IMG/VR virus record: IMGVR_UViG_3300039382_000253
Span: 1-9,142 of that record
Length of the DNA stretch: 9,142 bases
Source: a virus
Lineage: Duplodnaviria > Heunggongvirae > Uroviricota > Caudoviricetes
Direction: 5' to 3' (one strand)
In this document: piece after piece, positions 1,822-6,804 of the stretch
Numbering within the stretch: position 1 is the first letter of the stretch
How the letters are laid out: each line of letters starts with the position of its first letter
The notes under the pieces: generated by a model
Seen by the model: the letters and a program-made list of their open reading frames with translations, nothing else
Told to the model about the DNA's origin: nothing
The model's database searches: none
Made by a program: the position numbers and the translations under genes

Positions 1822-2379
1822 TCATGCAGCCTCCCGACGGGCAAGAATCCTTGAGCCGAACGCCATCAACTCTCCACGATCAACGGTCGTAAAGTGGCAG
1901 TGTGTACGGGGGTATGGGTGCCAGATAATGAGCATCGAGCCTTTATTATTTCCACTGACGGGTTTCTCAGTGAGTGGGTTAATAAATGCCAGTCGTCCTG
2001 CCGTGATGAATCTGACCTCACTGGCGGTTTGTATCGCTTCATGAAACCATCCGACAGATGTGTCAGCAGGCAATAACATTACACATCCCACACTACTGAA
2101 TTTGTTTTCAGTGGCTGCCTTTTTCACAAAAGGGGAAATATTGCTGTATGGTGGATTCAACCAGACATAACCAGAGGCATATCCCATTGCTTCAGGCCAT
2201 GAAGTGGTTAATGTGTTCTGCTCCTGTGAGATAAAAAGCCGACATAGTCGGTTTTTTTCGCTGGCGGCAGCATCAAGTTGAAAAACGAACTCTGCATTAA
2301 GCGCAGCAAAAATCTCTGGTGGTGTGCGCCAGCTGTCGCGATGTTCGGCAGGAGTATTGCTTCCGGTGAAATCAGTCAT
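1822..2379 (-). CDS. Phage Dam-family DNA N6-adenine methyltransferase (orphan)
   Basis: 185 aa containing WLNPPYSN, the (D/N)PPY catalytic motif IV of N6-adenine methyltransferases. ATG at 2379..2377 with a GGGGG SD about 5 nt upstream. No adjacent restriction endonuclease ORF. Confidence 0.75.
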   Translation of the reverse strand: MTDFTGSNTPAEHRDSWRTPPEIFAALNAEFVFQLDAAASEKNRLCRLFISQEQNTLTTSWPEAMGYASGYVWLNPPYSNISPFVKKAATENKFSSVGCVMLLPADTSVGWFHEAIQTASEVRFITAGRLAFINPLTEKPVSGNNKGSMLIIWHPYPRTHCHFTTVDRGELMAFGSRILARREAA

Positions 2380-2533
2380 ACAGCCCCCGTTTATTATTTA
2401 TCGCCTCAGCCAGCCGCTGTGCTTTCAGTGGATTTCTGATAACAGAAAGGCCGGGAAATACCCAGCCTCGCTTTGTAACGGAGTAGATGAAAGTGATCGC
2501 GCCTACCCGGATATTATCGTGAGGATGCTTCAT
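2372..2533 (-). CDS. Small 53-aa ORF immediately downstream of exo (lambda orf60a position)
   Basis: Hand-translated as [53 protein letters not shown]. Its ATG (2533..2531) overlaps the exo stop as ATGA, and its stop overlaps the Dam start (TATGACTGA). Not in the supplied ORF track, presumably because it is below the length cut-off. Confidence 0.45.
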
Positions 2534-3210
2534 CGCCATTGCTCCCCAAATACAAAACCAATTTCAGCCAGTGCCACGTCCATTTTTTCGATGAACTCCG
2601 GCACCATCTCGTCAAAATTCGCCATGTACTTTTCATTCCGCTCAATCACGACATAATGCAGGCCTTCACGCTTCATACGCGGGTCATAGTTGGCAAAGTA
2701 CCAGGCATCTTTTCGCGTCACCCACATGCTGTACTGCACCTGGGCCATGTAAGCCGATTTTATGGCCTCGAAACCACCGAGCCGGAACTTCATGAAATCC
2801 CGGGAGGTAAACGGGCATTTCAGTTCAAGGCCGTTGCCGTCACTGCATAAACCATCGGGAGAGCAGGCGGTGCGCATACTTTCGTCGCGATAGATGATCG
2901 GGGATTCAGTAACATTCACGCCGGAAGTGAATTCAAACAGGGTTCTGGCGTCGTTCTCGTACTGTTTTCCCCAGGCCAGCGCCTTAGCATTAACTTCCGG
3001 AGCCACACCGGTGCAAACCTCAGCCAGCAGGGTGTGGAAGTAGGACATTTTCATGTCAGGCCACTTCTTTCCTGAGCGGGGCTTTGCTATCACGTTGTGA
3101 ACTTCTGAAGCGGTGATGACGCCGAGCCGTAATTTGTGCCATGCATCATCCCCCTGTTCGACAGCTCTCACGTCGATCCCGGTACGCTGCAGGATAATGT
3201 CCGGTGTCAT
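2530..3210 (-). CDS. exo: Lambda-type 5'-3' exonuclease (Red alpha)
   Basis: 226 aa, [50 protein letters not shown]..., matches lambda Exo as recalled over essentially the full length. Start overlaps the bet stop (ATGA). Confidence 0.95.
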
Positions 3211-3992
3211 GCTGCCACCTTCTGCTCAGTGGCTTTCTGTTTCAGGAATCCAAGAGCTTTCACTGCTTCGGCCTGTGTCAGTTCTGACGATGCGCGAATG
3301 TCGCGGCGAAATATCTGGGAACAGAGCGGCAATAAGTCGTCATCCCATGTTTTATCCAGGGCGATCAGCAGAGTGTTAATCTCCTGCATGGTTTCATCGT
3401 TAACCGGAGTGATGTCGCGTTCTGGCTGACGTTCTGCAGTGTATGCAGTATTTTCGACAATGCGCTCGGCTTCATCCTTGTCATAGATACCAGCAAATCC
3501 GAAGGCCAGACGGGCACACTGAATCATGGCTTTATGCCGTAACATCCGTTTGGGATGCGACTGCCACGGCCCCGTGATTTCTCTGCCTTCGCGAGTTTTG
3601 AATGGTTCGCGGCGGCATTCATCCATCCATTCGGTAACGCAGATCGGATGATTACGGTCCTTGCGGTAAATCCGGCATGTACAGGATTCATTGTCCTGCT
3701 CAAAGTCCATGCCATCAAACTGCTGGTTTTCATTGATGATGCGGGACCAGCCATCAACGCCCACCACCGGAACGATGCCGTTCTGCTTATCAGGGAAGGC
3801 GTAAATTTCTTTCGTCCACGGATTAAGGCCGTACTGGTTGGCGACGATCAACAATGCGATGAACTGCGCATCGCTGGCATCACCTTTAAATGCCGTCTGG
3901 CGAAGAGTGGTGATCAGTTCCTGTGGGTCGACAGAATCCATGCCGACACGTTCAGCCAGCTTCCCTGCCAGCGTTGCGAGTGCTGTACTCAT
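3207..3992 (-). CDS. bet: Lambda Bet single-strand annealing protein (Red beta)
   Basis: 261 aa, [66 protein letters not shown]..., matches lambda Bet as recalled. Confidence 0.95.
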
Positions 3993-3997
3993 CCGTT

Positions 3998-4294
3998 TTA
4001 TACCTCTGAATCAATATCAACCTGGTGGTGAGCAATGGTTTCAACCATGTACTGGATGTGTTCTGCCATGCGCTCCTGAAACTCAACATCGTCATCAAAC
4101 GCACGGGTAATGGCTTTTTTGCTGGCCCCGTGGCGTTGCAAATGATCGATGCATAGCGATTCAAACAGGTGCTGGGGCAGGCCTTTTTCCATGTCGTCTG
4201 CCAGTTCTGCCTCTTTCTCTTCACGGGCGATCTGCTGGTAGTGACGCGCCCAGCTCTGAGCCTCAAGACGATCCTGAATGTAATAAGCGTTCAT
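3998..4294 (-). CDS. gam: Gam (GamS form), RecBCD inhibitor
   Basis: 98 aa, [60 protein letters not shown]..., matches lambda GamS. Upstream DNA is lambda-like but has a stop in the GamL frame and no in-frame ATG, so only the short form is encoded. Confidence 0.9.
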
Positions 4295-4369
4295 GGCTGA
4301 CCTCCTGAAAATGGCTGTGAAAATATCGCCCGCGAAATGCCAGGCTGATTAGGAAAACAGGAAAGGGGA

Positions 4370-4660
4370 TTAGTGATTCAGGCCGTTACCGCGTCCGTCG
4401 AGAAAAACTTCCACGAGCAAATCACGGGTATAAGTGCGCTCGATGCCGCGATGCAGATAAAGCCGTCCGCGTAAATTAGCTGATGCAGTCCAGGTACCAT
4501 CTTTGTGTTTGACCAGCATTCCTGGCATGACCGCACCTCGATTAACGGTCTGCGTTCCATAATGTTGATGAACCATAAAAACTCCTGCCCGTAAGCTGGG
4601 CTGCTGAACATATAGAGACTTCTGCGCGTATTCAGGCGGTGGATGGCCGCCGGTTGTCAT
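4370..4660 (-). CDS. Hypothetical protein in the kil position, not homologous to lambda Kil; start uncertain (4660 gives 96 aa, 4576 gives 68 aa)
   Basis: Shares lambda kil's frame and stop codon (TAA inside TCACTAA) but its C-terminus (...[14 protein letters not shown]) is unlike lambda's (...WILILKLRSSKSIH, back-translated from recalled lambda DNA). The ATG at 4576..4574 has AGGAG 5 nt upstream; the ATG at 4660 has GAGG about 10 nt upstream. A second long frame overlaps it, so coding status is not certain. Confidence 0.4.
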
Positions 4661-4825
4661 AACTAAGCCGCCTCGTTGAAGCGACTAAGGTATGAAATGT
4701 TGAGTTAATTTCAGCTGGTCACACCGACGTTCACGCGTCCGTTTCACCCCTCGCACTCCCCGAAGCCTGCTGAAATTCAAACTGCGGATCTAAGCGGTCA
4801 TCGCAACGGTGAATCAGGTAGTTGC

Positions 4826-4900
4826 CGTATCGTTGTGTTGTTGCGATGAACTTATTTAAAACTATAGTTGTTTTATCGTCAACAACAAAAGTTGTTTTAT
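4826..4900 (-). promoter_or_regulatory. Putative oL/pL: operator-like repeats with a leftward promoter
   Basis: Palindrome AACAACAAAAGTTGTT at 4881-4896; 10-mer GTTGTTTTAT repeated at 4867-4876 and 4891-4900; GTTGTGTTGTTG at 4832-4843. Minus-strand -35 TTGACG (plus 4877-4882) with TTTAAA/TTAAAT 16-17 bp downstream. Half-sites resemble the oR sites. Confidence 0.4.
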
Positions 4901-5023
4901 TGGTTGCTTTAGATATAACTGGTTGTATTTAGGATGGATTTATTTTGTGACTTGAATCGCATAGCGATAACTGAAGCGAGGTTATGGTGGTTTTTTTAAC
5001 GGTGTGTGTGATGAGGGGAGGGC

Positions 5024-5050
5024 AAAAGAAAACCCGGCACGGTGACCGGG
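5024..5050 (-). terminator. Candidate rho-independent terminator downstream of the repressor gene
   Basis: On the minus strand, CCCGG-tcaccgtg-CCGGG followed by TTTTCTTTT, about 120 bp past the repressor stop. The stem is only 5 bp but all G/C. Confidence 0.4.
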
Positions 5051-5171
5051 ATTCTTACGCCGTTAGGTAAAGATATTATTGCGGTGGCTTAATATTACTA
5101 CCTAGAGCAAAGATAGGAATTAGTTCTTTACTGAATGAGCACAATGCCCAGTTGATAATTTTTAATTGGTA

Positions 5172-5861
5172 CTACCCATGCTTCCTATATGTCTGCGGCA
5201 TGCTCCCAATAACCTTACCGAAGATGAACACCCGGTTCATCTCGTCTTTCTCGATCGGGTCCCACGGTGAGTAGCTTTTGTTATCAGAGATGACCAGCAG
5301 CTTATCCTTCATCATTTGCAGGCGCTTTACATGGGCTGTGTCGTCGTACAGAAACGCATAGATACCATCACCGTCGAAAGATTTAACTGTGATATCAACG
5401 AACAGCAGATCACCTGGTTCGATCGTTCCTGACATGCTGTCACCACGCACGTTAATGATGCGGATATTTTCCGCCTTCCTACCATCGAACATGTGACGAG
5501 CATCGTCAAACGAGTACTCAACCGAGCGTAGAACTTCTACAAACTCACGGTTGATGACTCCCGGCCCAGCACTGACTTCTATATCAAGAACGTCAATCTT
5601 GAAGTATTTGGAATGGCTGACAGTTGATTGTATTGGTTGCACTGTACTGTCTGACATATTTCCAACGCCAGAAGATAACCATTCTGCGCGCACACCCAAA
5701 GCGTTCGCGATCTCCACGATTTTAGTTGTTTGATTAGCTTTCCCTGTTTCGATTTTCTGAATAGCAGCCTGGCTAACCCCGACCAAATCCCCAAGCGCCT
5801 TTTGTGTAAGGCCTCGCGCTAATCTGGCTTCTTTAAGTCTTTCTGAGAGTGTTGTTTTCAT
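5172..5861 (-). CDS. cI: CI-like prophage repressor (N-terminal HTH, C-terminal S24/LexA-like autopeptidase domain)
   Basis: HTH in LTQKALGDLVGVSQAAIQKIETG; Ala-Gly in the linker (VSAGPG); Ser in VRGDSMSG and Lys in HVKRL as the S24 catalytic dyad. Preferred start is the ATG at 5861..5859 (229 aa) with no SD, consistent with a leaderless pRM transcript. The open frame extends to 5927 but would run through the operators. Confidence 0.85.
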   Translation of the reverse strand: MKTTLSERLKEARLARGLTQKALGDLVGVSQAAIQKIETGKANQTTKIVEIANALGVRAEWLSSGVGNMSDSTVQPIQSTVSHSKYFKIDVLDIEVSAGPGVINREFVEVLRSVEYSFDDARHMFDGRKAENIRIINVRGDSMSGTIEPGDLLFVDITVKSFDGDGIYAFLYDDTAHVKRLQMMKDKLLVISDNKSYSPWDPIEKDEMNRVFIFGKVIGSMPQTYRKHG

Positions 5862-5965
5862 AGTCCAAATGTACAACCAAGGTTTTATTCCATCAAACGA
5901 AAATGGTTGTTGACTAAAAACAACCATGGTTTTAATCTTGATTCAAATTAACCACGGAGGTTGTT
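5862..5965. promoter_or_regulatory. oR-like switch region: three operator-like sites with divergent pR (rightward) and pRM (leftward)
   Basis: Sites ACAACCAAGGTTTT (5873-5886), AAAATGGTTGTT (5900-5911, reverse orientation AACAACCATTTT) and AACAACCATGGTTTT (5919-5933). pR: -35 TTGACT 5910-5915, 17-bp spacer, -10 TAATCT 5933-5938. pRM on the minus strand: -35 TTGATG (plus 5891-5896), 17-bp spacer, -10 TACATT (plus 5868-5873), 6 nt before the repressor ATG. Confidence 0.55.
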
Positions 5966-6196
5966 ATGAACCCAGCTATCAAAACAGCGATCAATATCGT
6001 TGGTTCACAAAAGAAACTGGGCGCTGCTTGCGAAGTTTCACAGCAGGCCGTCTATAAGTGGCTTCACAACAAAGCAAAGGTATCCCCTGAACATGTCGGC
6101 AGCATTGTTACGGCTACTGGTGGAGTAGTGAAGGCATACCAGATTCGCCCGGATCTTCCGAAGTTGTTTCCACACACCGAAAAGAACGCAGCTTAA
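5966..6196 (+). CDS. Cro-like small HTH regulator (YdaS-like family)
   Basis: 76 aa; GGAGG SD at 5956-5960; HTH in GSQKKLGAACEVSQQAVYKWLHN; first gene downstream of pR. The ATGG-V motif and overall pattern resemble Rac YdaS as I recall it. Confidence 0.75.
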   Translation: MNPAIKTAINIVGSQKKLGAACEVSQQAVYKWLHNKAKVSPEHVGSIVTATGGVVKAYQIRPDLPKLFPHTEKNAA

Positions 6197-6208: not shown

Positions 6209-6221
6209 CGCTCTTTAACAA
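6209..6221 (+). promoter_or_regulatory. boxA-like element (CGCTCTTTAACAA) in the cro-cII intergenic region
   Basis: 12 of 13 positions match the rrn boxA consensus TGCTCTTTAACAA and it resembles lambda nut boxA (CGCTCTTA). It sits where nutR lies in lambda. No convincing boxB hairpin follows. Confidence 0.4.
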
Positions 6222-6264: not shown

Positions 6265-6804
6265 ATGCAACCACTTACATACCAACAGACTAGCGGATTT
6301 AGCCCGACTGCGGTGATAAATCGTTCTCAAACAAAACAGGTGCCAGGCCACGAAAAAATCCGTGATGCCGTCCGCGCCTGGTCGGCTGTAGATAATCAGG
6401 ATGTCGTTGCCACACTCATTGTGAATGAGTATCGGGAGCAGGGCGGCGGCACCATCGATTTCCCTGATGATGTCAGCCGTGCACGCCAGAAGCTGTTCCG
6501 CTTCCTCGATAACAAATTCGATTCTGAAAAATACCGAAATAACGTGCGTGAACTGACCCCGGCAATTCTGGCGGTACTACCGCTGGAATATCGCGGTTAC
6601 CTGGTTGAGCAGGATAGCTTCATGGCTAGGTTGGCTGAAATGGAAAAGGAACTCAGTGAGGCAAAACAGGCTGTCATTCTCAACGCACCACGCCACCAGA
6701 AACTGAAGGAAATTAGTGAAGGTATTGTGTCGATGTTTCGTGTGGACCCAGATCTGGCTGGTCCATTGATGGCGATGGTTACTACCATGCTGGGGGCGAT
6801 ATGA
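6265..6804 (+). CDS. 179-aa protein in the cII position, possibly a YdaT-like regulator
   Basis: AAGGAG SD at 6254-6259, 5 nt before the ATG. No similarity to lambda CII. C-terminal region (LAEMEKELSEAKQAVILNAP...) looks like an amphipathic helix or coiled coil. Family assignment is tentative and from memory only. Confidence 0.55.
   Translation: MQPLTYQQTSGFSPTAVINRSQTKQVPGHEKIRDAVRAWSAVDNQDVVATLIVNEYREQGGGTIDFPDDVSRARQKLFRFLDNKFDSEKYRNNVRELTPAILAVLPLEYRGYLVEQDSFMARLAEMEKELSEAKQAVILNAPRHQKLKEISEGIVSMFRVDPDLAGPLMAMVTTMLGAI

Follow-up and report, generated by a model that had tools for sequence, protein, structure and literature searches.

We find that the gene in the kil position of this early region, directly upstream of gam, very probably encodes a 68-residue cell-division inhibitor of the KilR family, as the first gene of the pL operon and a non-homologous functional analogue of lambda Kil. 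For this gene we establish family membership, coding frame, start codon, mosaic junction and operon position. The window (the whole 9,142-nucleotide stretch that was analysed) is the early region of a lambdoid prophage. Over the stretch that was tested, its identity both to the E. coli phage PhiR34_1 (PV340559) and to prophages of many E. coli chromosomes is 99.9-100%. Judged by its sequence, the kil-position protein is a KilR-family prophage cell-division inhibitor that is already known and named in RefSeq, where WP_000233576.1, an identical protein in the 68-residue form, is called "phage encoded cell division inhibitor protein". The finding is thus an ordinary one, because the gene is already annotated and because, of 5426 complete E. 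coli genomes, 1986 (more than one-third) cover at least 80% of the kil-to-cI stretch (4295-5171).

The open reading frame (ORF) runs for 96 codons on the minus strand (4370-4660), and an internal methionine, Met29, gives the 68-residue version. Both versions were searched and both match the KilR family; the shorter one is the conserved gene. Against PHROG 294 ("Kil protein for bacterial septation inhibition"), the full ORF gives E 1.2e-38 and the 68-residue form E 1.3e-37, and Rac KilR falls in the same group (E 7.5e-35). BLASTP aligns the product with Rac KilR at 36% identity over 61 residues (E 3e-12), with Met29 opposite KilR Met1, and with phi80 Kil at 41% identity (E 5e-16). A profile-profile comparison of the family with Rac KilR by hhalign returns a probability of 97.4%. 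The preliminary description had recognised no family here and proposed a candidate for an uncharacterised function. These clear matches to a characterised family overturn both statements, as the RefSeq name is already that of a division inhibitor and the family has been characterised through Rac KilR. The preliminary picture of a basic product rich in His, Arg and Gly is borne out (pI 10.0 for the 96-residue form; 6 His, 8 Arg and 12 Gly).

Within the family, the protein stands somewhat apart from Rac KilR. The NCBIfam model NF008465 ("FtsZ inhibitor protein") is matched with E 1.8e-17 over positions 1-70 of 73, with scores of 63.1 bits for the 68-residue form and 61.9 for the 96-residue form; Rac KilR scores 159.1, and the curated cutoff is 92. 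Because the score lies below that cutoff, we place the protein in a distinct subfamily of the KilR family, outside the narrow Rac-KilR subfamily model. PF27398 is carried by 98%-identical proteins in precomputed annotations (NCBI name "cell division inhibitor protein"); this entry is newer than our local copy of Pfam-A, in which the 96-residue ORF has no match. The family is small: a search of 1.8 billion representatives gave 66 clusters (50% identity) with E<=1e-3, and the named matches come from enterobacterial phages and prophages. A PDB sequence search with the family profile found nothing. The AlphaFold2 (AF2) model predicts a small six-stranded beta-barrel, with strands at residues 8-59 and a mean pLDDT of 84.8; the tails are modelled less confidently (mean pLDDT 65 for residues 1-10 and 67 for residues 61-68). 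This predicted fold agrees with the one that has been described for Rac KilR from AF3 (PMC12482147).

Lambda homology ends within the last codons of the gene. The preliminary description had placed this limit at the shared stop codon, at about 4375, and blastn of the window against lambda 31000-38500 agrees, giving a single match (2377-4376 to lambda 31194-33193, 97.8% identity). This block reaches 4376 and lambda kil spans 33187-33330, so that only the last 7 nt of the ORF, T CAC TAA, lie within the homology: its stop codon, the His codon before it and a single further base. When 4295-5171 was used as a megablast query, phages with a lambda-type Kil matched only 4295-4376 (query 1-82). The product itself is unrelated to lambda Kil, as had been claimed: BLASTP returns no alignment at E<=100, the hhalign profile-profile probability is 0.1%, and lambda Kil belongs to PHROGs 3924, 2461 and 2055, not 294. 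P22 Kil was also considered as a relative and rejected, since BLASTP finds it unrelated both to the 68-residue protein and to lambda Kil.

The same junction had been read as the trace of a replaced gene. An unrelated gene does meet lambda DNA at the stop codon, but the junction is neutral as to direction. On the present comparisons, lambda Kil and the KilR-type genes are best regarded as non-homologous alternatives for one slot, not as an original and its replacement, because other phages also place the KilR-type gene beside recombination genes (adjoining gam-bet-exo in the Salmonella phage SEN34, and one gene further upstream of gamL-bet-exo in the Klebsiella phage Mulock) and because the SEN34 kil-gam homology to the window (~71%) continues through the junction. 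Furthermore, phages with unrelated operator regions (55/90 mismatches) keep the leader-plus-kilR module (4370-4845) at 95-99% conservation. The locus is a documented case in which non-homologous cassettes, lambda Kil and KilR-type genes, are interchangeable at a single mosaic junction.

The KilR-type gene appears to open the pL operon. Leftward firing of pL from ~4853-4935 is suggested because inverted repeats of the cI-cro operator and promoter sequences (5873-5938) lie there. The operator repeats have the form AAAACAAC-N4-GTTGTTTT, with half-sites common to oL and oR, and the promoter cores of the two are near-identical, TTGTTGAC(G/T)A(T/A)AAAACAAC(T/C)AT(A/G)GTTTTAA. Note that a consensus promoter scanner did not flag pL, which we assigned by inspection. 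Along the minus strand, cI, terminator, oL/pL, leader, kilR-like gene, gam, bet and exo follow one another, so placed that a leader of ~270 nt would be followed by the KilR-type gene as the first of the operon. Between cI and this gene (4661-5171) there is no N-like antiterminator gene, cIII or rex gene, and this 510-bp stretch holds no ORF of more than 36 codons and no conserved one. Rac, phi80, HK225, SEN34 and Mulock have comparable arrangements upstream of gam or other recombination genes, and the earlier view that this pL-proximal slot holds a host-takeover function stands. Homology to phages of other immunity types ends at the terminator downstream of the repressor gene. The predicted fold of the leader RNA is no more stable than that of shuffled sequence (z = -0.07), Rfam gives nothing relevant across the whole window and no leader match, and the leader has no DNA similarity to the Rac kilR leader or the KilS sRNA.

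Table. Features of the window discussed in the text (positions are those of the window; strand as given)
Feature	Position	Strand	Basis or remark
exo	2530-3210	-	gene layout
bet	3207-3992	-	gene layout
gam	3998-4294	-	gene layout
Lambda-homologous gam-kil spacer and last 7 nt of the ORF; junction 4376/4377	4295..4376	.	blastn, megablast
KilR-family cell-division-inhibitor gene, 68 aa	4370..4576, stop codon included	-	homology, substitution pattern, RefSeq
Overlapping 77-codon ORF, not a gene	4378..4611	-	stops in relatives; CDS in GenBank PV340559 (PhiR34_1)
28-codon in-frame extension making the 96-aa ORF	4577..4660	-	outside the conserved protein
Shine-Dalgarno AGGAG, 5 nt 5' of the Met29 ATG (4576-4574)	4582..4586	-	sequence reading
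Conserved 63-nt block, GAGG and mini-ORF start MT(T/I)GGHPP(P/T)	4635..4697	-	TTTCATACCTTAGTCGCTTCAACGAGGCGGCTTAGTT then ATG ACA ACC GGC GGC CAT CCA CCG CC
Distal pL leader (5' UTR), no conserved ORF	4698..4845	-	95-99% conserved among phages with wholly different oL/pL
Inferred oL/pL	4853..4935	-	inverted copies of oR/pR sequences at 5873-5938
Putative pL elements: -35 TTGACG, -10 TTAAAT or TAAATA	4882-4877, 4859-4853	-	by eye and alignment to pR
Intrinsic terminator downstream of the cI-like repressor gene	5033..5050	-	terminator scan; CCCGGTCACCGTGCCGGG then TTTTCTTTTG
cI-like S24 repressor	5172-5927	-	gene layout
cro	5966-6196	+	gene layout; followed by a cII/YdaT-like gene, O, P and ren

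Sequence comparisons point to the 68-residue version, starting at Met29, as the true, conserved functional gene. We place the start there because the upstream extension is not conserved, AGGAG is suitably positioned, the homologues begin at the equivalent residue and the RefSeq model (WP_000233576.1) has coordinates matching 4370-4576. That the 96-residue ORF is instead the true product, with a KilR domain and a functional proline-rich N-terminal extension, we regard as very improbable, even though this frame is open in the window and several close relatives, GAGG precedes its ATG at 4660 by 10 nt, the extension (84 nt) hardly varies from one E. coli copy to another and GenBank annotates 96 residues in PhiR5_1. 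The first 28 residues are kept only among near-identical E. coli copies and give way to unrelated sequence in other clades, which nonetheless retain the MVHQHYGTQ... start and, at the same place, a Shine-Dalgarno-like purine run. The upstream ORF is separated from the kilR-type ORF by in-frame stops in HK225 and thrown out of frame by 1-nt indels in PhiR30_1 and Turner, where the 68-residue ORF stays intact; in SEN34 and Mulock, different genes occupy the place of the extension. Rac KilR, phi80 Kil and NF008465 all begin at the Met29 equivalent, the homologues in HK225, SEN34, Mulock and 4C10 are each annotated at 207 nt, and Met29 has the better Shine-Dalgarno sequence (5-nt spacing). The first nine codons of the extension are, moreover, the head of a separate conserved mini-ORF (MTTGGHPPP...). 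A minor 96-residue isoform in this particular phage is possible. The same comparisons settle the frame. KilR is the coding frame because substitutions against the 207-nt homologues of HK225, SEN34 and Mulock fall mostly at its third codon positions (36-42 of 53-59) and change codons synonymously more often than not (28-32 synonymous to 10-14 non-synonymous, ~2-3 to 1), and because the overlapping 77-codon frame (4378-4611) gains one to four stops in these relatives and has stops in 98.6%-identical copies as well. The PhiR34_1 record annotates that frame as a hypothetical protein; by the substitutions and stops this annotation is wrong, and it is almost certain that neither this frame is the gene nor the region non-coding, a possibility raised by the preliminary description. 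The 77-residue product has no family match above threshold: its sole match, Pfam PHD_P300 (E 0.075), scores 13.4 bits where the cutoff is 27, and we take it as noise. The gene model is thereby corrected to 68 residues, not 96, and the overlapping frame of PV340559 is ruled out.

A different doubt concerns function: the protein could be a diverged member of the KilR fold with another target or role, such as superinfection exclusion, an effect on MreB only or some other part in host takeover. The named Kil proteins are just 36-41% identical to it, its score is under the NCBIfam curated cutoff, and it has a conserved tail of its own subfamily, LDGxGxGL(S/N)H. Furthermore, our literature search found no experiments on this KilR subfamily and no paper citing WP_000233576. 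We still consider such a departure decidedly unlikely, given that homology is full-length with no added domains, that slot and operon are the same as for the Rac and phi80 kil genes, and that models of anti-phage defence systems (PADLOC-DB, E<=1) match no part of it. The unrelated lambda Kil in the same slot also targets FtsZ, which fits selection for division arrest in the lytic programme.

Returning to a KilR-type division inhibitor, Rac KilR provides the functional template, as the only family member that has been studied experimentally, and it has been studied well (PMC12482147, PMC5793797). According to the literature, it blocks Z-rings and, at high dose, also affects MreB, and overexpression of FtsZ relieves its toxicity. 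This toxicity is ZipA-independent, whereas lambda Kil needs ZipA, and published papers describe Rac KilR as unrelated to lambda Kil. By homology, we infer FtsZ as the target and filamentation as the phenotype of the window protein. Note that identity to Rac KilR is just 36%, a caveat for this transfer of function. The element is an N-less lambdoid prophage essentially identical to PhiR34_1, in which the cI-like repressor keeps pL off in the lysogen. On induction, the KilR-type gene would be transcribed together with gam-bet-exo, and its protein would bind FtsZ and block Z-ring assembly, so that the host filaments; it may also disturb MreB. The gene would have reached its slot by mosaic recombination, with a junction in its last codon and stop codon.

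The C-terminal tail may modify this activity. After the last strand (VFL), the window protein has 9 residues (DGRGNGLNH) and Rac KilR has 12 (GRDGLPVKAESW). The subfamily motif at this end can be written LDGxGxGL(S/N)H or LDGxGNGL(S/N)H, with G61, G63 and L66 at least 90% conserved, and phi80 Kil (LDGHGNPLTH) and the window protein have LDGxGNxLxH in common. The 12 residues of the Rac KilR tail are essential, and it is through its length that the tail acts (PMC12482147). Removal of three tail residues retains toxicity and filamentation and abolishes the MreB-type rounding of cells (PMC12482147). By analogy, the tail that is shorter by three residues may be relevant to MreB inhibition, and the range of targets could differ from that of Rac KilR. 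The subfamily may, with low confidence, be mainly a division inhibitor, as judged from tail length. This matters because, among the KilR-type variants of E. coli, the commonest one differs in its tail, exactly where Rac KilR separates its FtsZ and MreB effects.

Upstream of the gene, the 63-nt block recurs as an independently conserved unit in phi80, HK225, Enterobacter phages and the Klebsiella phage KO-TP1. A free-standing ORF of 21 codons that ends ...IETLNKCVEVLY* begins with it in both phi80 and HK225, and in phi80 the block comes after N and an intrinsic terminator. The mini-ORF of the window diverges after codon 9, runs in frame into kilR and carries a poly-proline stall motif; the mini-ORF peptides have no PHROG match. 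Its role could be that of a leader peptide or of a boundary sequence for recombination, and it may couple translation (perhaps dependent on EF-P) to Rho-dependent termination or to translation of kil. If so, this coupling would meter the expression of a toxic gene in a pL operon that has no N. A combined proposal, in which the short tail gives a pure FtsZ block without an effect on MreB, as the Rac truncation lacking three C-terminal residues would predict, and the mini-ORF is a leader-peptide element that meters kil, is unlikely to hold in full.

Compared with known systems, the closest studied likeness is to Rac KilR of E. coli K-12 (b1352), through full-length homology, a size of ~70 residues, a predicted all-beta barrel with flexible termini, and a place in a leftward early operon upstream of recombination genes. 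In Rac, however, sieB, ydaF and ydaG lie upstream of kilR and recET lies downstream, whereas the window gene is the first after pL and sits beside a lambda-type gam-bet-exo. The Kil protein of phi80 (PHI80_42, annotated "FtsZ inhibitor protein Kil", a function apparently assigned by annotation) is alike in length (69 residues against 68) and in its tail motif, and the phi80 pL operon contains the MTTGGHPP... block too. It differs in that phi80 kil is downstream of N, tL1 and two small ORFs, and the window gene directly follows pL. Lambda Kil (47 residues) has the same slot directly upstream of gam in the pL operon, DNA past its stop codon that is 97.8% identical, and the same outcome of FtsZ block and filamentation, which for the window protein is predicted by homology to KilR. 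Lambda Kil is itself a predicted helix-turn-helix peptide with no sequence relationship to the window protein, and the window locus has none of the cIII, ea10, ral, sieB and N genes of lambda.

Several minor observations concern the neighbouring early genes. A perfect boxA-like CGCTCTTTA lies at 6209-6217 on the plus strand, 13 nt after the cro stop, where lambda has nutR. Its position alone is suggestive; no boxB hairpin is evident near it and the window has no N gene. No boxA was found in the pL leader, and the six matches window-wide (at most one mismatch) compare with 6.1 that chance alone would give. For the gene in the cII position (6265-6804, plus strand), the PhiR34_1 record has "activator protein cII" and RefSeq PGAP has "toxin YdaT domain-containing protein", and this difference in naming suggests that the immunity region is closer to the racR/ydaS/ydaT type of Rac than to lambda cII. 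Downstream of the repressor gene, the slot in the rexAB position (~5051-5171) is empty in the window. Relatives carry cargo there: a GevT/GevA toxin-antitoxin pair in PhiR47_2, HipA/HipD in PhiR5_1, an apparently related two-gene cassette (compare GevT/GevA) in Lambda_4C10, and other ORFs in PhiR30_1 and Perceval (loci L002, 3839-5214; L007; L015-L017). The rexAB position thus has the look of a hot spot where toxin-antitoxin or defence cargo collects.

The kil-position gene is also inconsistently annotated among GenBank phage records. PhiR34_1 has the wrong overlapping frame, Turner has a frameshift-hybrid ORF, PhiR30_1 has the upstream ORF labelled "Kil", and versions of 96, 128 and 139 residues occur elsewhere, that of PhiR5_1 having 96 (L001, 4508-4741; L014, 384-665; L015, 1748-1954; L002, 3076-3462; L016, 1576-1995). 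RefSeq and the records of HK225, SEN34, Mulock and 4C10 use the 68-residue model.
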